DNA of 48,809 nt from an uncultured bacterium (lineage in GTDB: Bacteria; Patescibacteriota; Minisyncoccia; UBA6257; 2-01-FULL-56-20), in NCBI GenBank assembly GCA_963844965.1, contig CAWJQC010000001.1, positions 1 to 48,809 of the forward strand, given 5' to 3'. Made by a program: the position numbers and the translations under genes. Shown here piece after piece: positions 1,293 to 47,596 of this stretch. Numbering within the stretch: position 1 is the stretch's first letter; every line of letters starts with the position of its first letter. The notes below the pieces were generated by a model. The model had not been told where the DNA came from and made no database searches. It saw only the letters and a list, made by a program, of their open reading frames with translations.

Positions 1293-3623
1293 ATGTCCTC
1301 AAAGTCATTGCTTAGAATTATAAAAATTCTTATTTTCGTCGTTGTAATTGGAACGCCGTTTTTTTATGTAAAACAAACCGTTTTCCCCTTCACCATCTCC
1401 AAGATGGCTTTTTTTCAGTCGCTTGTGGAGTTTATATTTTTCCTTTGGCTTGCGCTCGTCCTCCCAAGTTTTGTCGGCAAAAATTTGGGAGGACGAGCGA
1501 TTTCCGACAAAAAATATCGCCCGCGCCGGACGCCGGCCCTTCTGGGTCTCGCGGCGTTTCTTGCCGTTTTGGTTTTCACGGCGGCTCTAGGCCTCGACCC
1601 TTGGCGCAGTTTCTGGTCAACATATGAGCGGACGTTCGGAGTTGTTACTTTTTTGCATTTAGGGGCACTGGCCCTTGTTCTTTCCGCGATTTGGTCGGAA
1701 ATTCCCTGGAAGAAACTTGCTTATTCTTCGATTGTGACCTGCGCGATCGTTGACATCATCGCCGCCTTGCAATTATGGAAGCCGGCCTTATTGCTCAATG
1801 AGGGTGCGATTAACAGAGCCGGCTCCACGTTTGATAATCCGTCGTTTCTGGCCGGTTACGTTTTGTTCCATGTTTTCCTTTGTCTCTATGTTCTATTTAC
1901 TTTGAAGAGAGGAGAGGATCTCCGAGCCGGTGGGCAGCGCTCGTCCAAGAATCTTTGGATAGGCATTGTTCTTTTTGTTATTCTCGTATTGAACGTCGTC
2001 ACCATTTTTATAACGCAGACGCGCGCAGCCATTTTGGCTTTGGTTGCCGGCTTTTTTGTTCTATTTTTGTTCTTTGCCTTTCGGCCGCCAGATAACGAAT
2101 GGCTGCCGGGTTTTTTGAAAAAAAAGTGGTTCTACGCCGCCGTCATCGCGGTCATCGTTTTGGGCGGCGCACTGTTTTGGTTCACGCGCGACAGCGCGGT
2201 TTGGGCGCAAGTTCCCGGACTCGGGAGATTCCGCAATATTTCCCTCACCGGCGGCGACACTTTGCCCAGAGTCATCGCCCTTAGCGCGGCTTGGCGCGGA
2301 TTTTTGGACAAGCCGTTCCTGGGTTGGGGATGGGAGAATTTCAATATTGTGTTCAATAAGTATTACGACCCGCGGTCTTTGGAGTTCAACTATGAAGAAA
2401 CGAGATTTGATAAGCCGCACAATTTTTTCATGGAATATTTGGTTGCCGGAGGCGTTCTCCTCGCGCTCGGATTTTTGGTTATGCTCGGCATTTTGATATA
2501 CGAGGCGCGGCGGCACAAAGAAAAACTTTTTTACCCGCTATTTTTGGCGGCGATTGTCGCCTACTTGGTCCAGAACCTGTTCCTTTTTGACACGCTCGGT
2601 CCGGCACTCATGTTTTTCGCGCTTTTCGGATACATGGACGGTTATTATGCCAAAAGCAGCGAGGAAAGGCCGGAAAAGGAAGCGCAAACACGGATACCGA
2701 CAAAGGTCAGCGGGCTTATGCTTGCGGTGTGCGCGCTTGTCGCTCTGGTTTTTGCGTATCAGTTTAATTTCCTGACCGTTGAGGCGTCTTATTATGAGTG
2801 GCGTGCTTTTAATGATTTTTTCGGAGGGAAACAGCAGAATGCCATAGAGGATTTCAAGACCACTTTGAGTATTTGGAGTCCGTATAGATGGAATTTCGGC
2901 AGGGATTTCGCCGCGAACGTTATAATGGCTTATTTTTACAATCAAGGCGCGGTGTCCGACAACGAGGCGCTTCTCGCTTTGAGCGCTATGGAAGAAGCGC
3001 GGGATGAGCATCCTCTTGATGCTTATAATCACTATGCGCTCGTTGACATGTACAATGAGGTTTCGGACATTGACATCGCAAAATACACGGCTTTAGCGGA
3101 GAAAGAAGCGGCAACGGCGCTCGCTTTGAGCCCGAACCGGCAGGAAGTTTATTTTTCTCTCGCGAAGACGAAACATATCGAGGGCGACGACAAGGCGGCA
3201 CTTGAACTCGCGAAGCGCGCCTTGGATTTGGACCCGAAGGTTCCCGACGCCCATTTCTACTACGGCGTGCTTCTGTTCTCGACTGGAGATCAAGCCGATG
3301 GCTATGCGGAAGTGAAGGAAGCGATCTCTTTGGGAAGAGAGTGGAAAAACTTTTACGAACCGAGAACGATTGCCGGATTTTTCGGCGATTTTGACCCTCC
3401 GAAACATTTGGATGAGGCTATAGACCTTTATAAAACGGCGCTTTCCATGCAACCTGACGATTTGGAAACGCAGATAAAACTCGGAGTTGCCTATTATTTC
3501 AAAAATGACTTTACCGACGCGCGCGATTACTTGAGTAAGGCGGCGACAAGATTCAACTTCAGAAGCAGTCCCGAGTTCGCCGAATTCAAGCCGATTCTGA
3601 ACCAGTTGGGAATAAATTATTAA
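1293..3623 (+). CDS. polytopic membrane protein, O-antigen ligase (Wzy_C)-like N-terminal domain plus C-terminal TPR repeats
   Basis: About 10 predicted TM helices, TQTRAAILALVAG ligase-like motif, C-terminal TPR-like helices (AYNHYALVDMYNE..., ALDLDPKVPDAHFYYGVLL...). Confidence 0.65.
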   Translation: MSSKSLLRIIKILIFVVVIGTPFFYVKQTVFPFTISKMAFFQSLVEFIFFLWLALVLPSFVGKNLGGRAISDKKYRPRRTPALLGLAAFLAVLVFTAALGLDPWRSFWSTYERTFGVVTFLHLGALALVLSAIWSEIPWKKLAYSSIVTCAIVDIIAALQLWKPALLLNEGAINRAGSTFDNPSFLAGYVLFHVFLCLYVLFTLKRGEDLRAGGQRSSKNLWIGIVLFVILVLNVVTIFITQTRAAILALVAGFFVLFLFFAFRPPDNEWLPGFLKKKWFYAAVIAVIVLGGALFWFTRDSAVWAQVPGLGRFRNISLTGGDTLPRVIALSAAWRGFLDKPFLGWGWENFNIVFNKYYDPRSLEFNYEETRFDKPHNFFMEYLVAGGVLLALGFLVMLGILIYEARRHKEKLFYPLFLAAIVAYLVQNLFLFDTLGPALMFFALFGYMDGYYAKSSEERPEKEAQTRIPTKVSGLMLAVCALVALVFAYQFNFLTVEASYYEWRAFNDFFGGKQQNAIEDFKTTLSIWSPYRWNFGRDFAANVIMAYFYNQGAVSDNEALLALSAMEEARDEHPLDAYNHYALVDMYNEVSDIDIAKYTALAEKEAATALALSPNRQEVYFSLAKTKHIEGDDKAALELAKRALDLDPKVPDAHFYYGVLLFSTGDQADGYAEVKEAISLGREWKNFYEPRTIAGFFGDFDPPKHLDEAIDLYKTALSMQPDDLETQIKLGVAYYFKNDFTDARDYLSKAATRFNFRSSPEFAEFKPILNQLGINY

Positions 3624-3781
3624 TCGATTAGCCGGCGGCTGATTGGGTGGTTTCGCCGGAGATTCCCGATTTTGCTATAATAAACATACTTGAAACCAAC
3701 AAAGGTCGACGCGACATAAAGCAAAGCGCGAAGCGCGAACGGCGGATCGATCCGCTTCACGATTTGCTGTAAGCAATTATT

Positions 3782-4057
3782 ATGACAAAAGCAGAATTAG
3801 TGGAGGCCGTGATGAAAGCGGCTGGCATTGAAACCAAGGTGGCCGCCGAGAGGTGCGTTGACACGGTTTTCGACACGATTGTGAAAACCATGAGCCGCGG
3901 CGAGGAAGTCGCCATAACGGGCTTCGGTACTTTTCGGGTTGCCAAGCTCGCCGCTCGCCAAGGAAGGAATCCAAAAACAGGCGAGACGATTCAGATCGCG
4001 GCTTCGGTAAAACCCAAATTCCGCGCCGGCAAGGTTCTGAAAGAAGCTGTTAAATAA
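3782..4057 (+). CDS. hup: HU family DNA-binding protein
   Basis: 91 aa, MTKAELVEAV...GFGTFRVAKLAARQGRNPKTGETIQI, a canonical HU/IHF fold sequence. Confidence 0.9.
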   Translation: MTKAELVEAVMKAAGIETKVAAERCVDTVFDTIVKTMSRGEEVAITGFGTFRVAKLAARQGRNPKTGETIQIAASVKPKFRAGKVLKEAVK

Positions 4058-4151
4058 GATGTTCCCCGGCTTGCGTTCGGCGTCTGCAGTTTCTCGCCTT
4101 TGGAGCACCGGCAAAAAGCAATTCCCCCGATCCAAGTCGGGGGAATTTGTC

Positions 4152-4427
4152 TAGAACCCATCTCAAAAATACTTTCAGGTCGCGTTGCGAGAGATTTTCT
4201 CGTATTCGCAAGGCTTGGCGAGGGAGCTGTGCTTGATGCACTGCGACCGAGCCGTAACGCAGCGGGACGAGAAAATCTCCGCAACCCTTCGGGATGCGGT
4301 AAATCGTGCGCAGCACCGTGTCGCTTCGGACTCGGAGTACCGCAGAGGGTACACCTTCGTCCTTACTCCTTGTTCTGCGCACGATTTGCCAGTATCGCGA
4401 CCGAAGGTATTTTCGAGATGGGTTCTA
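4152..4427. other. 276-nt non-coding element bounded by a 21-bp inverted repeat (TAGAACCCATCTCaAAAATAC / GTATTTTCGAGATGGGTTCTA), in a convergent intergenic region; candidate structured ncRNA or MITE
   Basis: Inverted repeat read directly (20/21 match); internal hairpins (cgagagattttctcg, gagaaaatctc); no convincing ORF. Confidence 0.3.
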
Positions 4428-5219
4428 AGATGATTTACTGATCATTCCTGAGATATCTAGGAGATTCTTGTAGGTTGAGGACAAAAAATCAAGCGAAGAT
4501 TTTATGTGATTAGAAGATTCATCCGGCGGGGCAAATGTGCCGAGATCAGTTTCGGCAGTTTCGTTTTCCTTGAGAGCGCTGCCGAAGTTGACTTGCGCCT
4601 CATTCCAAAGATTTTGTATTTCGTCGTTGTCCACTATCTTCAACAGCGCCATCGTCGCTGAAACTTGATTTATCCTCGTCTGGGCTGATTGGAACAACGC
4701 CTGATTGTTGGCCCAGATAATGAGATTGTTCGCGTTTTGGGCCGCCGGTTTGTAGTTTCCGTCACGCCACTCGCCGATAACTTTGGCGAAATCCTTGCTG
4801 CCTTGAAGCCCAAGATCGTTTATTTTTGATTTCTGGAGCGTCAAGTAATTCTCGGCATTATCAAGCTGGCTCATGAGTTGGCTTTCAAGATGCTGTATGG
4901 CGGGGTCGCTTACAGTTACGCCGCTCAAATCTGTTTTCACGCTAGTGACCTCTTCTATGGCGCAATCCATCGTTTCTCCAAGCAGTTCTTTTCTTACCGC
5001 GAGCTCCTTTTTCATTTCCGTGAGGTAGTCGAGAGAGGAATCGTTCTGAATGGCGGCAAGTTCGTCAAATTTATCTTGGCTCAATGTACATTGCTGAGGG
5101 GCGTCTGCGGCAAGAACGGGCTTGGAGATGATCGCCGCGAAGACCCAAAAAAACATGCCCATCGTTCCGATAATTTTCATGGGCATTTTTCTCGCGATGA
5201 TTTGCGGGAAAATTATCAT
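4425..5219 (-). CDS. secreted hypothetical protein (signal peptide, helical)
   Basis: N-terminal hydrophobic signal MKIIGTMGMFFWVFAAIISKPVLA; last gene of the sigma/anti-sigma operon (4-nt overlap with upstream gene). Confidence 0.5.
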   Translation of the reverse strand: MIIFPQIIARKMPMKIIGTMGMFFWVFAAIISKPVLAADAPQQCTLSQDKFDELAAIQNDSSLDYLTEMKKELAVRKELLGETMDCAIEEVTSVKTDLSGVTVSDPAIQHLESQLMSQLDNAENYLTLQKSKINDLGLQGSKDFAKVIGEWRDGNYKPAAQNANNLIIWANNQALFQSAQTRINQVSATMALLKIVDNDEIQNLWNEAQVNFGSALKENETAETDLGTFAPPDESSNHIKSSLDFLSSTYKNLLDISGMISKSS

Positions 5220-8924: not shown

Positions 8925-9040
8925 TATCCAGAATCTAGAAATTAGAAAGTAGAGAATAGAATAAAGAAAACCAAGATTGAATTAGTTGACTTTCACCTTC
9001 TACTTTCTAGATTCCATTTTCTATTTTCTTGCTCTTTTCG
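8925..9040. repeat. AT-rich palindromic intergenic element (TAGAAAGTAGA / TCTACTTTCTA; AAATAGAAAATAGAA / TTCTATTTTC family)
   Basis: ctagaaattagaaagtagag ... ccttctactttctagattccattttctattttc; related copy at 28441-28560. Confidence 0.45.
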
Positions 9041-12073: not shown

Positions 12074-15000
12074 ATGACTTATCAACACATTTACAAAGCC
12101 ATTTTGTCAAGGTTCACCGCTACACTATTCCTTGCGGCGCTTGCTGTGTTTTTGGGTTTTATCCCTGTTCACGCCGCGATTTACAATGCGAGCGGCCTCC
12201 TTGGACACATAGACCAAAGCGGAAATCCCATATACACGTCCGGCGGAATGAACAACGGACCGAACGCCAAGGGTTTGTATGTTCCGGCCGATACGGCACT
12301 CGATGCGGTAAATCACCGGCTTTTCGTGGTGGACACCAACAACGCCCGCGTTCTGGTTTTTTCTCTGACCTCTGCGGATGGCATTTCCTCCGTAACTCCT
12401 TCTTATGTGATAGGGCAAAGCGATTTCGTATCGGCTGACGCGGCGACCGTGTCGCAAAACCGGCTAGCGTATCCCGTAGGCCTCGCCTATGATTCCGCGA
12501 ACAGCCGGCTTTTCGTTTCCGATCAGGTTAATAACCGCGTCCTGGTGTTCAATGTCGCTCCGGGAACGATCGCGAACGGCGAGAACGCCTCTTATGTTCT
12601 TGGTCAAGGAAATTTTTCTTCTAACTCTGCCAACACGACCCAAAATGGTCTTAGTACTCCTTACGGACTTGCCTATGACGCCACAACGACGCGCCTTTTC
12701 GTTTCGGACCAGACGAACAACCGCGTTCTGGTGTTCAATGTGGCGGTTTCTTCCATGTCCAACGGAATGAACGCATCGTATGTCCTGGGGCAAGCTAATT
12801 TTACATCATCAGCCGCAGCCACTAAGAGCAGCGGCTTGAATACGCCGTATGGTGTCATGGTGGACGGCAATAGCCGCTTATTCGTCGCCGATAGCGGGAA
12901 CAACAGAGTTTTATATTATAGCGTTTCATCCATTACGAACGGCAAAGCGGCAACGAGGGTTTTGGGACAAGGAACTAGTTTTACCACATCGGCCGCGGCC
13001 ACGACACAATCTGGTCTTTCCGCTCCGCAAGGCCTGGCTTACGATTCCAAGTCCAACCGTCTTTTCGTCGCGGATGACGGCAACAACCGCATAATGGTGT
13101 TCTCCGTGGGAACGGGGAATTTCACGAGCGGGATGAATGCGTCATATGTTCTGGGACAGACTTCTTTTACTGCGGCCGCCGCCAATATTTCACAGAACGG
13201 CTTGAGCGCTCCATATGGTCTTGCCTATAGTTCCGCGAACAGCCGGCTTTTCGTCGCGGACCAAACGAACAGTCGCATTATGCTTTTTAACGCGGCTACC
13301 TCAACCATCTCTAACGGTGAAAACGCTTCCGGTTTGTTTGGCCACACGGACCAAAACGGGAATCCATTGTATACCATAGGCGAACCGAACAACGGCCCGA
13401 GCGCTCAGGGGTTTAATTATCCTTACGGAACCACGCTTGATGCCGTGAATCATCGTCTTTTTGTTTCCGATCAGACGAACAACCGCGTCCTGGTTTTTGC
13501 TTTGGATTCAAACAATAATATTTCAGCCACCACCGCCTCCTATGTTCTGGGTCAGAGCAGCTTCACTGGTTCGTCCCCGTCAACTTCACAGGGCGGTCTC
13601 AGCGCTCCACATGGTTTGGCATATGACGCGGCGAATAACCGTCTGTTCGTGTCCGATACCAGCAACAACCGCGTCCTGGTGTTCAATGTCGCTCCGGGAA
13701 CGATCGCGAACGGCGAGAACGCTTCGGTGGTTTTGGGACAATCTTCTTACACGACTTCGGATCCCGCCGTCACCCAGAACGGCCTCAATGCTCCCTATGG
13801 TCTTGTCTACGATCCGTCGAACGGCCGCCTCTTCGTAGCGGATAACAGTAACCAGCGCGTAATGGTCTTCAATACCATCGCGAACGGAGCGAACGCCGCT
13901 TTTGAGCTCGGTCAGAGCGACTTTGTGACATCCAATTCCGCCGCAAGCCAAAGCGGGCTCTCCGGCCCCGCCGACCTTGCTTATGACTCCTCAACGAGCC
14001 GCCTTTTCGTGGCCGATCAGATAAATAACCGCATCATGATTTTTAATGTTTCAACATCCACGATGGCGAACGGCAAAAATGCCGCGCACGTTTTGGGTCA
14101 GGCTGATTTCACGGCATCCAATGTCAACACAACCCAAGGGGGATTGAGCGGCCCTTACGGACTTGCGTACGACGCGACGAGAGGACAGCTCTACGTCGCG
14201 GACGTCAACAACAGCCGCATTCTCGTGTTCAACGCGATAGTTTCCGCGCTGGCCGACGGAGAGAATGCGTCAAACGTTTTGGGAACAGCGGATTTTGTCT
14301 CGGTTGGAGGCGGCACGTCGCAGAGTTCGGTCAATTCTGACAATTCGCTCGCAGATGATACCGCGAGTAACAGACTTTTTGCGGTAGACGGCCCCGATAA
14401 TCGCGTCACAGTCTTTTCATTGGTGAGGGTCAATGCTGCGTCCCTGCCCGGCGGCACGGTCGGGGCAGCTTATTCTGCGACAATCACGGCTTCGCAGTCG
14501 CAGGGAACGCTGAGCTTTGCAATCGCGAGCGGCAGTCTGCCGCCGGGACTTTCTCTGAACGCTTCTACGGGCGCGATATCGGGAGCGCCGACGGTCGCGA
14601 CAACGTCCGTCTTTGTGGTTGAGGCCGACGACGCATTCTCCACAGGCTCGTTCTTTGACCGCGCGACGTTCTCCATTACTGTTTCCGGGGGCGACACCAC
14701 TCCTCCTTCCGTCCCCACAGGACTCATGGCTACCGGAACGACCACTTCCACCATTTCCTTGTCCTGGACCGCTTCTACCGATTCCGGTGGCAGCGGACTT
14801 GCGGGATACAAGATATACAGGGACGGCACGCAGGTGGGAACCTCTACGGCTCCAAGCGCGACCTTCACCGACACCGCCCTTACAGCGTCCACGACCTACG
14901 CATATACGGTCAGTGCCTATGACAACGCCGGAAACGTTTCCGCGCAGTCATCGGCGATAAACGCCACGACCCAGTCTCTTTCCGACACGACGCCTCCCTC

Positions 15001-16621
15001 CGTACCGTCAGGACTTGCTGTTTCAACGACCACGTTGAGTTCGGTGTCGCTCACTTGGACCGCCTCTACGGACAATGTCGGTGTCACGGGATACGAGATC
15101 TACCGCAACGGCACGCAGACCGGAACTTCCACCTCGACCTCTTTCACAGATACCGGTCTTACGGCCTCAACTACATATTCCTATGCCGTCTCTGCCTATG
15201 ACGCAGCCGGCAACAACTCGGCAACCTCAACCTCTGTGAGCGCGACAACTTCGGCAGCGAGTAGCGGCGGTGACAGCGGCGGAGGTAGTGCTTCAACAAC
15301 TGTCACACTTTCTGCGATTACTGGGCCAACCGTCACGGTTGGAGACACTGCCGCCTTCACTGCAAACGCAACGGACTCTGATGCCAGCGGCACCGTTTCA
15401 TACGGCCTTACCGGCGCTCCTTCCGGTGCAACAATTGACGCATCATCTGGTGCGTTCTCGTGGAACACAACCGGAGTCACACCTGGCACATACACCTTCT
15501 CAGTGACTGCAACCGGCAGCACCGGTGGCTCTGATAGTAAGGACGTCTCAATTACGGTAAATGCGGCACCTGTGCCCGCGACGAGCACATTGAACGTTAC
15601 AGTGTTGGTTGACAATTCGCAGGGCGGCTTGGCAACCCCCTCCGACTTCACGGTCAGCGTTTATGCAAGCAATCCGAGCACATCCACCTTCCCGGGAAAC
15701 GCTTCAGGCACTACTGTGACCGTTGATGAGAATACTACCTACAGCGTGAATATTTCTTCGCTGAATGATTATTCTTCCGCTAATAACGGTAGTTGCGCTG
15801 GCACCACCGCGCCCGCCGGCAATTCAGTAAACTGTTCATTCACGGAAACATTCTTGCCCCTTATCTCACAACAGGGTTCGTCTAACCCGACCACTGATTC
15901 CATCACCGTAACCTGGACCACGGACCATCCGGCGACGAGCCGCGTGATCTACGACACCGTGTCGCATCCAACTTTGGGAGCGGCGCCGAACTACGGATAC
16001 GCCTATTCCACGGATGAGGACTCCACGCTTCTTACGAGCCACAGCGTGACTGTCTCCGGTCTTGCGGCTGGCACGACTTACTACTTCCGTGCTGTTTCCC
16101 ATGGCTCTCCCGAAACTGTAAGCGATGAATTCACCGGAACGACAACTTCGCCGGCGAGTAGCGGCGTGGGTAGTGCTACGGTCAGCGGCGGTGGCGGAGG
16201 GGGTGGAGGCGGCGGTGGTGGCGGAGGAGGAGGTGGTGGCGGAGGATATATTTCTCCTACCGAGCCAACCCAATCTCCGGCGTCAACTCAAAACGCCGCA
16301 GTGGACCCGAATGCCACACTCCGGTCTTTGCTGGAAAAGCTGCAAATCTTACTCGCACAACTGAACTCTAAATTGAAGTCGCAATTTACTCGCGATCTTA
16401 CCATAGGGTCGTCGGGAGATACCGTTCGCGTTCTTCAGACGTTCTTGAACATCAACGGTTATCCCATCGCCAGCACCGGTATCGGCTCTCCAGGCAACGA
16501 ATCCGCCTATTTCGGAGTGAAGACCGCCGCCGCTCTAGCTAAGTTCCAGGAGGTACACGGCCTTCCCCCAACCGGATACTTTGGCTCACTCACGAGGCAG
16601 ATAATAATGGGAATAAAGTAA
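12074..16621 (+). CDS. giant cell-surface protein: about 14 NHL repeats, Ig-like and Fn3 domains, 22-residue poly-Gly linker, C-terminal peptidoglycan-binding (PG_binding_1) domain. ORF track start 12035; ATG 12074 preferred because it follows a TGTTATTAT -10-like element and gives a signal peptide
   Basis: Repeated NNRVLVF(N/S) NHL motif; SLSWTASTD..GYKIYRDG Fn3; GDTVRVLQTFLNINGYPIASTG...LAKFQEVHGLPPTGYFG PG-binding. Confidence 0.7.
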   Translation: MTYQHIYKAILSRFTATLFLAALAVFLGFIPVHAAIYNASGLLGHIDQSGNPIYTSGGMNNGPNAKGLYVPADTALDAVNHRLFVVDTNNARVLVFSLTSADGISSVTPSYVIGQSDFVSADAATVSQNRLAYPVGLAYDSANSRLFVSDQVNNRVLVFNVAPGTIANGENASYVLGQGNFSSNSANTTQNGLSTPYGLAYDATTTRLFVSDQTNNRVLVFNVAVSSMSNGMNASYVLGQANFTSSAAATKSSGLNTPYGVMVDGNSRLFVADSGNNRVLYYSVSSITNGKAATRVLGQGTSFTTSAAATTQSGLSAPQGLAYDSKSNRLFVADDGNNRIMVFSVGTGNFTSGMNASYVLGQTSFTAAAANISQNGLSAPYGLAYSSANSRLFVADQTNSRIMLFNAATSTISNGENASGLFGHTDQNGNPLYTIGEPNNGPSAQGFNYPYGTTLDAVNHRLFVSDQTNNRVLVFALDSNNNISATTASYVLGQSSFTGSSPSTSQGGLSAPHGLAYDAANNRLFVSDTSNNRVLVFNVAPGTIANGENASVVLGQSSYTTSDPAVTQNGLNAPYGLVYDPSNGRLFVADNSNQRVMVFNTIANGANAAFELGQSDFVTSNSAASQSGLSGPADLAYDSSTSRLFVADQINNRIMIFNVSTSTMANGKNAAHVLGQADFTASNVNTTQGGLSGPYGLAYDATRGQLYVADVNNSRILVFNAIVSALADGENASNVLGTADFVSVGGGTSQSSVNSDNSLADDTASNRLFAVDGPDNRVTVFSLVRVNAASLPGGTVGAAYSATITASQSQGTLSFAIASGSLPPGLSLNASTGAISGAPTVATTSVFVVEADDAFSTGSFFDRATFSITVSGGDTTPPSVPTGLMATGTTTSTISLSWTASTDSGGSGLAGYKIYRDGTQVGTSTAPSATFTDTALTASTTYAYTVSAYDNAGNVSAQSSAINATTQSLSDTTPPSVPSGLAVSTTTLSSVSLTWTASTDNVGVTGYEIYRNGTQTGTSTSTSFTDTGLTASTTYSYAVSAYDAAGNNSATSTSVSATTSAASSGGDSGGGSASTTVTLSAITGPTVTVGDTAAFTANATDSDASGTVSYGLTGAPSGATIDASSGAFSWNTTGVTPGTYTFSVTATGSTGGSDSKDVSITVNAAPVPATSTLNVTVLVDNSQGGLATPSDFTVSVYASNPSTSTFPGNASGTTVTVDENTTYSVNISSLNDYSSANNGSCAGTTAPAGNSVNCSFTETFLPLISQQGSSNPTTDSITVTWTTDHPATSRVIYDTVSHPTLGAAPNYGYAYSTDEDSTLLTSHSVTVSGLAAGTTYYFRAVSHGSPETVSDEFTGTTTSPASSGVGSATVSGGGGGGGGGGGGGGGGGGGGYISPTEPTQSPASTQNAAVDPNATLRSLLEKLQILLAQLNSKLKSQFTRDLTIGSSGDTVRVLQTFLNINGYPIASTGIGSPGNESAYFGVKTAAALAKFQEVHGLPPTGYFGSLTRQIIMGIK

Positions 16622-19480: not shown

Positions 19481-19578
19481 AATTTCTAATTACCAATTTC
19501 TAATTTCTAAATAAATCCCAAATTACAATTTCCAAATTGTTTAGAAATTAGGTATTAGAAATTGGAAATTTAAAGTAC
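19481..19578. repeat. AT-rich intergenic palindromic element (AATTTCTAATT...CCAATTTCTAAATAAAT...TTGTTTAGAAATTAGGTATTAGAAATTGGAAATTT)
   Basis: Homologous to the element at 20841-20968. Confidence 0.5.
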
Positions 19579-20840: not shown

Positions 20841-20968
20841 TAATGAAAATTTCTAATTTCTAATATCCAATTTCTAAATAAATTTTAATATCCCAAATCA
20901 CAAAATTTATAATTTTAGCCATTAAGATTTTGATATTGTTTAGAAATTAGGATTTAGAAATTGGAAAT
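20841..20968. repeat. second copy of the AT-rich intergenic palindromic element
   Basis: aatttctaatttctaatatccaatttctaaataaat...ttgtttagaaattaggatttagaaattggaaattt. Confidence 0.5.
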
Positions 20969-21268: not shown

Positions 21269-21337
21269 GTATTGCGAAGTGCAAGGCGCGAATCGCGAAT
21301 CGGCTTGCGCCCAGCAGTCAATAATTTACACACTCAA

Positions 21338-23029
21338 ATGTCCAACGACGAACTGTTAAAACAAATACGAAAAGCGAAACTTTTGGACGAGGATGCGGTG
21401 GCCAAGCTCAGACGCGATTCGCTCCTGTCCGGCCAATCAGTTGAAAGTTTGATTTCCAATCGCCGGCTCATTGACGACGTGAAGCTCGCCACACTCAAGA
21501 GTTCGCTCCTCAACGTTCCTTATAAGAAAGTAAACGCTGGAGCTGTTGACAGCGGTCTTTTTGGGGTAATTTCCGAAGAGACGGCCAGAACTTACGGAGT
21601 CGCGCCGATTGAAGAGAGGGGAGACATGCTTGTCGTCGGGATGCTGCAGCCGGATGACGCCAAGGCGCAGGAAGCGCTCAAGTTCATTGGAGGGCAACAC
21701 CACCTGAACCTTGGGGTTTACTTGGTCTCTTACGGCGATTGGCAGGACGTTTTGAGGAGATACTCGCCCTATCGTTCGGAGGTTGAAAGAGCCGTAAGCT
21801 CTTTGAATTTGAAACCCGGAGGGAGCGGGCAGAAAATTGTCAGTCTTGACGAGGTCGGTGTCAGTGAAGACGCGCCGATTATAAAAATCGTAGCCGATAC
21901 TCTTAAGGAGGCCGTATCGGTGAGAGCTTCTGATATCCACGTTGAGCCCCAGGAAAATTATTTGCGTATCAGGTTCAGGGTTGACGGCAACCTGCGCGAG
22001 GAAGCGGCTCTTCCCGTTGAACTTTCCCAGCCAGTGGTCTCACGGATCAAGGTTATTTCCAGTTTGAAGATCGACGAGTCGCGAATTCCGCAGGACGGTC
22101 GTTTCCGGACGAAGGTTTTTGATAAATATATTGATTTCCGCGTTTCAACTTTTCCAACGCCGCTCGGTGAAAAAGTCGCAGTGCGCGTTTTGGATCCCGC
22201 GAGCGGCCTAAAGAGTTTTGAAGAGCTCGATCTTTTGTATGGCAATTTGGACAAGGTCAAAAAAGGTTTGGACAAGCCGTATGGCATGATCTTGGTCACC
22301 GGCCCAACTGGTTCCGGCAAAACAACGACGCTTTACGCTATGCTGCAGCTCTTGAACAAGGAAAATGTGAATATCGTGAGCTTGGAGGACCCGGTGGAAT
22401 ATTTTGTTTCCGGCGTCAACCAGTCTCAGGTACGTCCGGAGATAGGTTACGATTTCGCCTCGGGATTGCGGCAAATTTTGCGCCAGGATCCCGATACCAT
22501 CATGGTCGGCGAGATCAGAGACAACGAAACCGCGGGACTCGCGATACAATCAGCATTGACCGGCCACCTCGTCCTTTCCACCCTGCACACGAACAATTCG
22601 GCGGGCGTCATACCACGGCTCATAGATATGAAAGTTGAACCGTTCCTTTTGCCGGTTTCACTGAACCTTATGTTGTCGCAAAGGTTGGTGGGTTCGCTTT
22701 GCGAGAGTTGTAAAGCGGCGGAGACCGCGTCTCCGGATGTGGAAAAATTGATTAAGAGAGCTCTGGACGAACTGCCTCCGAACATCAGTTCAAAATACGG
22801 CTCGCCGTACAAAATTTTCCACAGCAAGGGCTGCCCAAAATGCAGGGGGCGGGGCGTTGTCGGCCGCACCGCGCTTTACGAAGTGTTGGAAATGACGCCC
22901 GGGCTTGAAGAGGTCATAATGAATGGGCCGACGGCACAAAAGGTTTTGAAGGAAGCGAAAAGCCAGGGGATGGTGAGCTCTGCGGCAGGACGGCGTTCTC
23001 AAAGCCCTGGACGGCAGAGTTTCAATTGA
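21338..23029 (+). CDS. pilB: type IV pilus assembly ATPase PilB (GspE family); true C-terminus DGVLKALDGRVSIEEVIRETEEI lies in the +1 frame ending at 23060, so there is an apparent 1-nt indel near 22976-22983
   Basis: N-terminal T2SE_Nter region, Walker A LVTGPTGSGKTTT, Walker B and Asp box (DPDTIMVGEIRD), His box (GHLVLSTLHTN), CxxC...CPKCRG zinc motif; start chosen at ATG 21338 (MSNDELLKQIRKAK). Confidence 0.85.
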   Translation: MSNDELLKQIRKAKLLDEDAVAKLRRDSLLSGQSVESLISNRRLIDDVKLATLKSSLLNVPYKKVNAGAVDSGLFGVISEETARTYGVAPIEERGDMLVVGMLQPDDAKAQEALKFIGGQHHLNLGVYLVSYGDWQDVLRRYSPYRSEVERAVSSLNLKPGGSGQKIVSLDEVGVSEDAPIIKIVADTLKEAVSVRASDIHVEPQENYLRIRFRVDGNLREEAALPVELSQPVVSRIKVISSLKIDESRIPQDGRFRTKVFDKYIDFRVSTFPTPLGEKVAVRVLDPASGLKSFEELDLLYGNLDKVKKGLDKPYGMILVTGPTGSGKTTTLYAMLQLLNKENVNIVSLEDPVEYFVSGVNQSQVRPEIGYDFASGLRQILRQDPDTIMVGEIRDNETAGLAIQSALTGHLVLSTLHTNNSAGVIPRLIDMKVEPFLLPVSLNLMLSQRLVGSLCESCKAAETASPDVEKLIKRALDELPPNISSKYGSPYKIFHSKGCPKCRGRGVVGRTALYEVLEMTPGLEEVIMNGPTAQKVLKEAKSQGMVSSAAGRRSQSPGRQSFN

Positions 23030-28449: not shown

Positions 28450-28560
28450 ATTCAGAAAGTGGAAAATAGTAAATAGAAAATAGAAAAATCAATGCCAGCT
28501 TTAAATAGGATGAGAAGTAAAAGAAAAAAATCACCACCCTCTACTTTCTACTTTCTCCGG
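28441..28560. repeat. AT-rich palindromic intergenic element related to 8925-9040 (AAATAGAAAATAGAAAA ... CTCTACTTTCTACTTTCTCC)
   Basis: Shared TAGAAAGT/ACTTTCTA and ATAGAAAATAGAA motifs. Confidence 0.4.
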
Positions 28561-39542: not shown

Positions 39543-42997
<3,455 letters not shown>

Positions 42998-43035: not shown

Positions 43036-43485
43036 TCAGCTCGGCTTCCCCGTTTGGTTCATGACGAAGCTTCTCCGTGGCACCACGAGTTCACTTGCCG
43101 TATCTTCCGTTACCGGCACCATCTTCTGTTTGTTCCGTATTTCCTGGATGTATTGTGGCAGATATTTGCCGATGAGATTACTCAGTTCCTTGAAATAACT
43201 CCCGCATAGAGAACAATCGGAAAGATGTTCAAGCGTTTGCAGTGCCAGCCTGCTTTTTCCGGAGGAGAAAATTTTTGCCAGCTCTTCAGAGGTTTCTTCG
43301 GAAAATTTGTTTATTACCGCGGTCTGACGTAAGGCGGCGAGCACCAACAAATCCCTGAAGCACTTTCTTGACGGCCAGAGAACTATTTCCTCCATGCCGT
43401 CGGCGGTTTTTGCCATGCCCTTTTGCTGGCATCCGTCAAGCCTTATCCATGTTGTCTGGAGACATGCCCTATTGATAGACAGCAT
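43036..43485 (-). CDS. hypothetical protein with HL..C..C motif (LEHLSDCSLCGSYF); possible paralogue of the 43992-44614 gene
   Basis: 149-aa ORF; alternative start MAKTADG at 43416. Confidence 0.45.
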   Translation of the reverse strand: MLSINRACLQTTWIRLDGCQQKGMAKTADGMEEIVLWPSRKCFRDLLVLAALRQTAVINKFSEETSEELAKIFSSGKSRLALQTLEHLSDCSLCGSYFKELSNLIGKYLPQYIQEIRNKQKMVPVTEDTASELVVPRRSFVMNQTGKPS

Positions 43486-43966
43486 GCATGCCAGCCAAAA
43501 AAGACAGTGGGGACAAGAAGCCGCGTGTTCTACGGCGGCGACCGGAATCCCCGATCTTCACCTCAACGAACGCCGGTATCTTTTCAAGTTCGGCGCACGG
43601 CAGGTTCCGCGATCTACCGGCCGTATTTTCGGAAGCCATAAAGCACCCCCTTTTAAGTTTCTGGGTATGAATATACGACTTTTTCCTGCCGTTGGCAAGA
43701 CGAAATGAATAACCGCGCCGCAAGCGGTGCGGTATCCGCAACCGGTTGCGGTCGGGCGGTTATTCACCCCTCCCCATTTGTGGCAGGGGTTTGGTGATAA
43801 TACCCAGCGAGAGCCGTAAGGCGACTTCGTCTTTGTATGTTGTGTGTGCATAGTTTTTGCAGCAAATGGGGAGGGGTTTATTATTCACACATCGCAATTC
43901 ATCCCTACACCCTCTCATCACGTTGCAAGAAGGTGTAGGGTATTCTTGCGAGTGAATAATAAAAAA

Positions 43967-44012
43967 GCCCAATCTGCGGCGGTATCTGCCGTCAGTTGGG
44001 CTTTTGTTTGTC
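43967..44012 (-). terminator. terminator hairpin (GCCCAA-CTGCGGC..GCCGTCAG-TTGGGC) flanked by A6/T-rich runs; the stop codon of the 43992 gene lies in its 3' arm
   Basis: aaaaaagcccaatctgcggcggtatctgccgtcagttgggcttttgtttg. Confidence 0.45.
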
Positions 44013-44614
44013 GCGTTTGCCGTCAAGCAATATCGTCAAGGTTGGAGCTCTGTAAGGAAGCGAAGCTTCTACGGCCTTGAAGTAGTCAATGGGGTTGATC
44101 CTTGAAAGAAAAACTTCCCTTCTTTTGTCCGCGGTGACCGGCCTTATTTCCGCGTTCGTTTTTATCATTGCCGCGTATTCTTTTTGATGTTTGGACATTA
44201 TTTCGCACATGTCTTGATTTCGCACATGTCTTGATAATATTCGGCGCAACTTGGGCACTCCTCCAGATGTTCCCTGAGAGGGTCGAGAAGTTCCGGTTCT
44301 ATTTCCGTTTTGAAGCGCTGGATTGCTTTATTCGCATAACCGACCCTCTCAATCTCCATATTGCGTATCAGAGTGAGGAGGGCGTAACTGAACATCTCCC
44401 GTTGCGGGCAATCTTCGTAGCACAGACGCGAGGTAAGAAAGTAGGTTTTGCGTTTCGCGAGAAGGTAAGAAAGCCAAAATAAACAACCCCCGCATTTTCT
44501 GGCGTGTTTTACGAGGTCGGCGTCAACCGGCCTCGTCAGATTGACGGCACGGAGCACCTTAGCCAACTGCGTGCATTCCGATTTTCGCGGCCTTGCCTTT
44601 TGTGTTTTTCGCAC
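43992..44614 (-). pseudogene. zinc-finger-motif protein (..LREHLEECPSCAEYYQDMCEI..) split into ORFs 44198..44614 and 43992..44258 by a perfect 17-bp tandem duplication
   Basis: Removing one copy of TTTCGCACATGTCTTGA restores a single 202-aa ORF; both ORFs encode QDMCEI from the two copies. Confidence 0.5.
44201..44234. repeat. perfect 17-bp tandem duplication (TTTCGCACATGTCTTGA x2)
   Basis: Read directly. Confidence 0.9.
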
Positions 44615-44762
44615 AGCCCCTCCTTTTTATGGAATCTCAATGACCGTCTAACTTTATTTTAACGCCGATTGCGGATATTCGCTAATCATTGCTTCGTCTT
44701 GGGTCTCGGCTGCTGATTTGTTTTTTTCTCGGATTTTTATTAAATTTAGATTGTGCGGCCGT

Positions 44763-44830
44763 GGTGTAGTTTACCCCGTTGGATCGCGTAGCGATTCCAT
44801 CGGGGCCCGGTTAACACGTCCCCCTGCTTG
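44763..44830 (+). other. pseudo-tRNA: tRNA-Asp 5' half (GCGGCCGTGGTGTAG .. CGGTTAACACGTCCCCCTG) with a 37-nt hairpin insertion in the D-loop and no 3' half
   Basis: Aligned by eye against the intact tRNA-Asp 110 nt downstream. Confidence 0.45.
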
Positions 44831-44874
44831 CCCCGCACCAAATTTATAAAATTATGAGATTTCGAGCGGTTCGC

Positions 44875-44949
44875 GCGGCCGTGGTGTAGCCTGGTTAACA
44901 CGTCCCCCTGTCACGGGGAATATCACGGGTTCAAATCCCGTCGGCCGCG
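44875..44949 (+). tRNA. tRNA-Asp (anticodon GUC); flanking sequence extends the acceptor helix to about 17 bp (AGCGGTTCGCGCGGCCG / CGGCCGCGCGAACCGCT)
   Basis: GCGGCCG-TG-GTGT-AGCCTGGTTA-ACAC-G-TCCCC-CTGTCAC-GGGGA-ATAT-CACGG-GTTCAAAT-CCGTG-CGGCCGC-G. Confidence 0.85.
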
Positions 44950-45024
44950 CGAACCGCTGGAACGCCTTCGTTTCAAATATTCGATTTCAGCAATAGCACT
45001 AAATGTAAAAATTTGGTGCGGGTT

Positions 45025-45062
45025 ACGGGGAAGGTTGTGGGTTCAAATCCCATCGCCCGCGC
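45025..45062 (+). other. degenerate tRNA-Asp 3'-half fragment (TACGGGGAAGGTTGTGGGTTCAAATCCCATCGCCCGCGC)
   Basis: About 80% identical to the 3' half of the intact tRNA-Asp. Confidence 0.4.
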
Positions 45063-45089
45063 AAAGACAAAGACAAGGTGGGGGATAAA

Positions 45090-45122
45090 GGGAAGATCAC
45101 GGGTTCAAATCCCGTCGGCCGC
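45090..45122 (+). other. exact 29-nt copy of the tRNA-Asp 3' end (ATCACGGGTTCAAATCCCGTCGGCCGCGC), candidate att-site remnant; an inverted 14-nt copy (GACGGGATTTGAAC) lies at 45179-45192
   Basis: Direct repeat of tRNA positions about 47-75, read directly. Confidence 0.5.
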
Positions 45123-45129
45123 GCTAAAA

Positions 45130-45164
45130 CCAAAAGACGATGACCTTGTGCCATCGTCTTTTGG
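45130..45164. other. perfect 13-bp stem-loop (CCAAAAGACGATG-accttgtgc-CATCGTCTTTTGG)
   Basis: Read directly; possible terminator of the tRNA cluster transcript. Confidence 0.4.
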
Positions 45165-45348
45165 TTCCTAATGTAGTCGACGGGATTTGAACGGGGATGG
45201 GGTCGGTCAGACCGCAGTCAGAGGGTATCGCGGACGCGGTCAAGGAATCGCGGTTTTCGTTGCCGTTGCTGTATGCTATACTGTAATTAATAGTTCCAAC
45301 TCTTGCGCTTCTCTTGTTCTTGGTGTATGCTCGAAAAACATGAAAATG

Positions 45349-45666
45349 GAAAAAGTCCTCCAAAAAGAAGTTTATAATCTTCAGTCGTTGTTTCCTAAAG
45401 AAGTAACCGTTTCTGTGCGTCGTTCGGAAGACGGCGGTTTTGCCGCCGAGATTTTATCTTACCCGCGAACATTTACCGAAGCCGATACTTTTTCAGAGCT
45501 TATTGAAATGATCAACGATGCGCTGTATACCTACTTTGATGTTCCAAAAAAATTCGTTTCTTTTATGCCCACCTATCTTCCTCCACTCGATTCTTCGGTG
45601 AGAGACCTCATCGGTCTCCCCGTACACATGAAACCGGAAAAAATTACATTAGAATTGGCGAGGTGA
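45349..45666 (+). CDS. hicB: HicB-like antitoxin (UPF0150/HicB N-terminal fold)
   Basis: 105 aa, FAAEILSYPRTFTEADTFSELIEMINDALYTYFD; GTGA overlap with downstream hicA-like gene; TGCTATACT -10-like element at 45281-45289. Confidence 0.55.
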   Translation, partial: EKVLQKEVYNLQSLFPKEVTVSVRRSEDGGFAAEILSYPRTFTEADTFSELIEMINDALYTYFDVPKKFVSFMPTYLPPLDSSVRDLIGLPVHMKPEKITLELAR

Positions 45667-45890
45667 AACCGATAGAAATCAAAACAACGGATTGTTCTGG
45701 TAACAACCTTATCCGAGCCGCAGAGCACTGCGGCTTTCTCGTTCAACAGGGCAAGAAGCATGTGAAAGTAAAAACCGCAGAAGGAAGGTTTGTTGCCATG
45801 ATTCCGAGGCATAGCCATATTAAGCGAGAAACCGCGAAAGGCATCGCTGAGGCGCTGCAAAAGTTTGGAGGCAACGTGGCAATGAACTAA
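45663..45890 (+). CDS. hicA: HicA-like toxin (YcfA family mRNA interferase)
   Basis: 75 aa, GFLVQQGKKHVKVKTAEGRFVAMIPRHSHIKRETAKGIAEAL. Confidence 0.6.
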   Translation: MKPIEIKTTDCSGNNLIRAAEHCGFLVQQGKKHVKVKTAEGRFVAMIPRHSHIKRETAKGIAEALQKFGGNVAMN

Positions 45891-47422: not shown

Positions 47423-47596
47423 GTCAACCCCCACCTTTTCGGGAAAAAGACGGGGGTCAACCCCCGCCTTTTCGGAAAAAGACGGGGGTCAACCCCCGCC
47501 TTTTCGGAAAAAGATGGGGGTCAACCCCCGCCTTTTCGGAAAAAGATGGGGGATTGACCCGCCTTTTCGCGCATCGCGCAAAAGGCGGGGGTTGAC
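47423..47596. repeat. tandem array of about 4.5 copies of a 31-32-bp unit (GTCAACCCCCGCCTTTTCGGAAAAAGACGGGG), each a pair of small hairpins; terminal variant with CGCGCATCGCGC loop; no spacers
   Basis: Read directly; ORFs 47291..47609 are translations of the repeat. Confidence 0.75.

Follow-up and report, generated by a model that had tools for sequence, protein, structure and literature searches.

The window, meaning the whole stretch of DNA analysed here, is a complete 48,809-bp contig from a Patescibacteria (Paceibacteria-like) MAG. A minus-strand coding sequence carries two perfect tandem copies of a 17-nt unit (ATTTCGCACATGTCTTG in plus-strand letters), at 44200-44216 and 44217-44233, a placement returned by Tandem Repeats Finder, a repeat-family search and a direct check. 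Tandem Repeats Finder reports a single array at 44200-44235, with a period of 17, 2.1 copies, 100% matches and no indels. The preliminary description of this DNA had read the duplication one base further on, as TTTCGCACATGTCTTGA at 44201-44217 and 44218-44234, and a direct string check confirms perfect copies at these positions as well. Identity at period 17 is perfect over the 36 nt from 44200 to 44235, which hold two units and a 2-nt AT, and in the register ATTTCGCACATGTCTTG the tandem pair occupies 44200-44233. By our own arithmetic, the chance expectation for a perfect 17-mer tandem in 48.8 kb is approximately 48809 x 4^-17 (~3e-6), and the duplication lies far above chance. The AT at 44234-44235, after the second copy, matches the first two bases of the unit and represents 2-nt microhomology; because two units are followed by AT, the ancestral single unit would have been flanked by the AT with which the unit begins. 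Microhomology of this kind at unit boundaries is the usual footprint of slipped-strand duplication, and the slippage origin proposed in the preliminary description fits it. Single-stranded folding of the duplicated region gave no significant structure (z = -0.26).

The repeat is out of frame and its copy number sets the reading frame, with one copy giving a protein of 201 aa and two copies giving separate products of 138 and 68 aa. The N-terminal piece (P0001, 138 aa, 44198-44614, minus strand) has a GTG start with GGAGGGG 5' of it at 44617-44623 and ends in ..CPSCAEYYQDMCEIKTCAK. It comprises ancestral residues 1-133 followed by KTCAK and retains all eight of the conserved Cys/His residues (C14, H37, C41, C44, C69, H116, C120 and C123). 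The second minus-strand ORF, at 43992-44258, contains ..NQDMCEIMSKHQ.. as had been described, but its product likely starts at the predicted ATG at 44198-44196 rather than at the upstream GTG. The resulting C-terminal piece (P0006, 68 aa, MSKHQKEY...KQKPN, 43992-44198, minus strand) corresponds to ancestral residues 134-201 and thus retains the KPN that is conserved at the C-terminus. Stop and start codons overlap in a TAATG at 44200-44196, in which TAA closes the first piece and ATG opens the second, and the two pieces together encode every ancestral residue. Deletion of one copy in silico yields a single ORF of 201 aa plus stop, which accounts for the 202-aa fused protein of the earlier description, and the HLxxCxxC motif named there is present as one of two HxxxCxxC motifs (KHARKCGGC and EHLEECPSC). 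Programmed -1 frameshifting at GCG-AAA-TAA was dismissed, as the site has no X-XXY-YYZ slippery heptamer. Inspection of the 3' end of the gene found, on the minus strand at 43963-44010, a GC-rich hairpin (GCCCAACTGACGG...CCGCAGATTGGGC) and then a run of T; this is probably the intrinsic terminator of the split gene, and its long loop explains why a consensus scan did not report it.

The neighbouring gene on the same strand, gene B (43036-43639), is a paralogue that is itself out of frame. The preliminary description had noted a similar motif there, and the motif (LEHLSDCSLCGSYF) is indeed present. The ATG of gene B, at 43639-43637, is accompanied by an AAGGGGG ribosome-binding site, and TTGCCA-17-TATATT at 43698-43670 resembles a promoter. 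Its N-terminus, MASENTAGRSRNLPCAELEKIPAFVEVKIG, is family-like and runs for approximately 30 codons in one frame, after which ...IPVAAVEHAASCPHCLFWLAC... continues in the frame of a 149-aa ORF (43036-43485, open from 43557). When the GGGG at 43549-43552 is shortened by one G, the product is a 200-aa protein that has all eight ligands and aligns with the family over its full length. The spacer between the paralogues, at 352 nt, is unusually long, the orthologous spacer in a related contig (L082) being 124 nt; both tandem paralogues of L082 are intact (194 and 175 aa). Rfam matched tRNAs alone, both across the whole window at the gathering threshold and at E <= 0.1 in 43480-45200 and 3600-4450, and the ~350-nt spacer therefore holds no known RNA. 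A 20-nt inverted repeat (43766-43785 and 43858-43877, 90% complementary, 72-nt loop) lies between the paralogues. The NAD-dependent DNA ligase gene ligA (40910-42997, plus strand) is the convergent neighbour.

On the other side of the split gene, tRNA-Asp (44875-44950) is flanked by partial copies of itself, namely a stretch like its 5' half at 44755-44826, 3' fragments of the T-arm and acceptor at 45015-45076 and 45077-45138, and an inverted 15-mer at 45178-45192. These partial copies may be scars of integration events at the tRNA. Just downstream is an ORF for a HicA-like toxin (45663-45890, Pfam E = 5.6e-4).

The window contains other repeated and non-coding elements. A 32-nt unit, GTCAACCCCCGCCTTTTCGGAAAAAGACGGGG, is repeated four times head to tail at 47423-47552 (96% matches), and each copy can form a hairpin; the array has no spacers and was rejected as a CRISPR. 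Paired A/T-rich heptamer arrays in opposite orientation, such as AATTTCT x4 followed by TTAGAAA x4, form a recurrent intergenic architecture at 8936-9029, 19481-19570, 20848-20963, 28454-28556 and 39549-39583, and a small ORF at 867-1229 lies between two oppositely oriented arrays of 11-nt units (GTAATTCAATT / ATTACTACTGA), at 740-866 and 1229-1284. Approximately 800 nt at ~3625-4425, and especially 4194-4432, have no convincing ORF and show translated similarity, with frame switches and stops, to ~14850-15090 of a related contig (L002), just upstream of a Mur-ligase-like gene. This pattern suggests a conserved non-coding or antisense element, for which the scan of 3600-4450 returned no Rfam match at E <= 0.1.

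Ancestry and family of the split gene

To identify homologues, we used the repaired 201-aa protein as query in a HMMER scan of 1.84 billion representatives at 50% identity. The scan returned 43 proteins (clusters), including the window's own two fragments; the remainder were 156-218 aa in length, with two exceptions, a fragment of 99 aa and a protein of 1032 aa. The repaired protein is closest to P0004 (45% identity) and P0005 (43%), followed by P0007 and P0008, all four of which match residues 5-201 in one stretch, and some 35 other proteins of 156-205 aa likewise align with it over its whole length. Approximately 40 homologues align without a gap at residues 133/134; none of them is interrupted or has a repeat at the junction position, and none of the 43 matches is a naturally split homologue. 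As these homologues read through the junction, one copy is the ancestral state. Related loci agree: the homologue next to ligA in L001, L002, L082 and L083 is one unbroken ORF in tail-to-tail orientation, and when the L082 orthologue is compared with the window by tblastn, the match passes from one frame to another precisely at the duplication. The earlier claim that the duplication splits one gene is thus borne out by its being out of frame and by homologues that are single, gap-free ORFs; relatives carrying two intact separate genes, which that description had named as evidence against its reading, were not found among the usable homologues.

The C-terminal piece lies downstream of the frameshift and has no stops. 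It is as similar to P0004 (45%) as the N-terminal piece is (43%), and it keeps all invariant columns of a five-sequence alignment (A3). The sequence decay expected downstream in an old pseudogene was not found in this piece, which points to a recent duplication or, alternatively, to a C-terminal piece that may still be constrained.

The family is small, unannotated and lineage-restricted, and occurs in close Paceibacteria relatives. Wherever enough flanking sequence is available, a convergent ligA adjoins the family member, and in the other loci it is the sole recurrent neighbour. A family member is present in only 2 of 80 ligA neighbourhoods of related genomes, and the gene is therefore accessory, frequently absent and dispensable. 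Among 80 species representatives, none has a LigA more than 72% identical to that of the window, and one Logan contig reaches 79%. A metagenome scan with the five closest sequences found one contig, from the organism of L082, and a word-indexed protein search with repaired gene A, repaired gene B and the family alignment returned essentially the window's own fragments, with neither an intact allele nor any names.

Nine positions are nearly invariant in an alignment of 41 family sequences (C14, H37, C41, C44, C69, H116, C120, C123 and Y126), and the family also shares a CLFWLS motif and a conserved C-terminal ..KPN. Eight of these positions are potential metal ligands that form two C...H-x3-C-x2-C sites (C14/H37/C41/C44 and C69/H116/C120/C123), and the protein presumably binds two zinc ions. 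AlphaFold2, run with the 41-sequence alignment, gave a confident, all-helical model (pLDDT 88.9, pTM 0.79) in which each HxxxCxxC lies at a helix-helix junction, between helices 32-40 and 42-60 and between helices 96-119 and 121-146. The repaired gene product is accordingly predicted to be an all-helical, cytoplasmic protein of ~200 aa. The break at residues 133/134 falls inside the predicted helix 121-146. Comparison of the N-terminal and C-terminal halves with hhalign aligned 21 columns around the motif with a probability of 61%, a hint that the protein may have arisen by internal duplication.

The preliminary description had suggested an HMM search for zf-HC2 anti-sigma and other domains, and likeness to the ZAS proteins (zf-HC2, PF13490; RsrA, TIGR03988) holds at the level of the motif. 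The family shares with them an H-x3-C-x2-C at a helix-turn-helix junction with an upstream Cys, in a small, soluble, helical protein, and has this motif twice. The zinc ligands of RsrA are C11/H37/C41/C44. In contrast to the ZAS proteins, the family scores below the cut-offs, gives no fold match and has no adjacent sigma-factor gene. The repaired protein matched PF13490 at E = 0.041 (14.4 bits, below the cut-off of 22.2), 3 of the 41 family members matched the same model with a best E of 0.013, and TIGR03988 reached 20.2 bits against a cut-off of 62.5; these sub-threshold matches were the only ones found in Pfam and NCBIfam for the repaired protein and the 41 members. A search of the family profile against PDB sequences returned nothing relevant and no anti-sigma factor, and comparison with solved structures gave neither a fold match nor the anti-sigma-domain fold. 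No partner sigma-factor gene lies next to the split gene within the window, which covers ~49 kb of this genome and where its neighbours are the paralogue, the convergent ligA and tRNA-Asp. We tentatively suggest that the family product may be a small metal- or redox-sensitive regulator whose conserved tail contacts a partner.

A second assembly and other frame disruptions

The sole other assembly to include the locus comes from Logan, which uses a different assembler and k-mers seen at least twice in run ERR10755942. A 1008-nt Logan contig (L081) spans ~43882-44889, carries both copies and runs through the repeat unbroken, and a gene caller applied to it predicted the same pair of 138 and 68 aa. 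The two-copy state in this assembly excludes an artefact of the MAG assembler. The window and the Logan contig differ by a single-base indel at 44825, where the latter lacks one T (CCCCCTGCTT vs CCCCCGCTT). This position is intergenic, upstream of tRNA-Asp, and the discrepancy reflects strain variation or a consensus error in either assembly, so that small-indel accuracy is imperfect in one or the other. Logan lacks most of the window's other proteins, indicating that the run covers this genome thinly.

The split gene and gene B are not the only interrupted genes on the contig. In a pilin-like LamG_3 gene (39543-40860, plus strand), the last domain strands follow a C4 run at 40635-40638 and are encoded in the +1 frame, in a 72-aa ORF. 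With one C of this run deleted, the protein is 438 aa long and its Pfam score increases from 65 to 80 bits. The LamG_3 domain also seems to hold an insertion of ~100 aa. A PilB/GspE-type ATPase (ORF 21272-23029, region to 23057, plus strand) has a conserved C-terminal tail of 30 residues, LRQDGVLKALDGRVSIEEVIRETEEI, that is encoded out of frame, with the change at ~22975-22985, where the window has seven nucleotides (GTGAGCT) and its relatives have six. The out-of-frame tail is 77% identical to relatives, equal to the rest of the protein, and four related genomes support the shift. In its 49 kb the contig thus has four or more frame disruptions, none of them followed by sequence decay, together with intact long ORFs of 1528, 1490, 776 and 695 aa. 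The disruptions are very recent mutations or, for the single-nucleotide cases, consensus errors, and the three in addition to the duplication point to a general background of mutation or consensus noise. Two of the four disruptions are clustered in two adjacent paralogues, which is only suggestive, and the focal region was searched harder than the rest of the contig.

A tblastn scan for frame switches using the ORFs of relatives gave five clusters of sites and was informative; those at ~4300 and ~25200 were rejected as antisense 'shadow' matches. Brute-force addition or removal of a base at every homopolymer produced 776 candidate ORF mergers, which were mostly meaningless.

Origin and consequence of the duplication

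We consider it probable that the duplication is a recent spontaneous frameshift that has left a young pseudogene or split gene. In this reading, slipped-strand synthesis would have duplicated 17 bp between two AT dinucleotides; the duplication frameshifts a formerly intact monocistronic gene into pieces of 138 and 68 aa. The first piece keeps both predicted metal sites and the second the conserved tail, and the latter could be produced solely by re-initiation at the overlapping UAAUG. Because the break falls in the middle of helix 121-146 of the model, loss of function appears more likely than retained function. As a counterpoint, no residue has been lost and the stop and start codons overlap, and some function could persist; a minority one-copy allele may also be present in the population. 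The same slippage, by precise loss of one copy, could restore the gene. This reversibility is common to any tandem duplication, and is therefore no proof of an evolved switch.

The preliminary description had raised the possibility of a reversible ON/OFF (phase-variable) switch, in which one copy is ON and two copies are OFF, with gain and loss by slipped-strand mispairing. Slippage can indeed remove a perfect tandem copy precisely, the reading frame downstream of the duplication is undecayed, gene B is interrupted at a G-run, and two precedents exist. In cap3A of the Streptococcus pneumoniae type 3 capsule, according to the account of Waite et al. 2001 in PMC11163986, tandem duplication turns the gene off and reversion turns it on. 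The resemblance lies in a short tandem duplication inside an ORF that is off and a precise copy loss by slipped-strand mispairing that is on. As far as that account goes, both states of cap3A were seen and interconverted experimentally and the duplications are recurrent, whereas here one state was seen, once, in one uncultured population.

The second precedent, phnE of E. coli K-12, has an extra 8-bp octamer that is lost in revertants (PMC13492104). In both genes an extra short unit, not a multiple of 3 in length, frameshifts a dispensable gene, and phnE revertants lose exactly that copy; natural populations of E. coli hold many loss-of-function alleles of phnE (PMC13492104). The two cases differ in that phnE has a pre-existing imperfect A/B repeat (ABB vs AB) and the ancestor here had one unit, and in that a reversion frequency and an allele survey exist for phnE. 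The best controlled estimate for reversion of the phnE insertion is ~1.6e-6, and this carefully measured value is in the range of ordinary mutation.

The remaining observations at the locus also argue against a switch. There are two copies only, and the ancestral state was a unique sequence with 2-nt microhomology and no repeat tract; likewise, the G-run of gene B is only 4 nt. A one-copy (ON) allele at >=90% identity was not found in a collection of 15 billion proteins, and the ~40 homologues are all intact, with no repeat at the position and no comparable recurrent event. The second assembly has the two-copy state as well, and other genes of the contig are also frameshifted. The switch proposed in the preliminary description is consequently unlikely.

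We regard as equally doubtful the possibility of a functional split gene, in which termination-reinitiation at UAAUG yields two pieces that reassemble and the duplication is nearly neutral. It is consistent with the encoding of all ancestral residues, the TAATG overlap of stop and ATG, the prediction of both pieces by gene callers and the intact conserved positions in the C-terminal piece. For a recent event, however, such intactness is uninformative on selection. The internal ATG, moreover, is not preceded by a Shine-Dalgarno-like sequence such as the GGAGGGG at the start of the gene itself. The position of the break within a long predicted helix and the absence of natural splits among the 43 matches also argue against this explanation.

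Less probable again is a technical artefact, with the extra copy introduced by library preparation, sequencing or consensus building. At least three single-nucleotide frame disruptions in otherwise well conserved genes (the PilB-like ATPase, LamG_3 and gene B) and the indel at 44825 cast doubt on the small-indel consensus quality of the contig, and these single-nucleotide errors may add technical noise to any reading of the duplication as a real mutation. An exact 17-nt tandem copy is atypical of base-calling or polishing error, however, a different k-mer assembler reproduces it from ERR10755942, and the long intact ORFs imply a low overall indel rate. Disruption of both adjacent paralogues could, in contrast to neutral decay, reflect selection for switching or loss, but it is very unlikely that they form a contingency locus in which each is toggled by its own slippage event, the 17-bp duplication in one and the G-run in the other. 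Such a locus would imply population heterogeneity in a redox- or zinc-sensing regulator of an ultra-small Patescibacteria cell, and no phase-variable regulator would have been described earlier from the candidate phyla radiation.

With recent spontaneous frameshift as the preferred reading, the locus joins the well known class of frameshifting short tandem duplications in dispensable genes, of which it represents one early example. Should both alleles prove to be present, it would be a rare example of phase variation in the candidate phyla radiation, and one open to direct testing. The several frame disruptions on this contig indicate that MAG annotation and pseudogene counts need caution. The broken gene also defines an unannotated family of ~43 clusters that has two C...HxxxCxxC sites and a KPN end and is structurally unmatched, and in Paceibacteria its members could act as lineage-specific regulators linked to metal or redox state.
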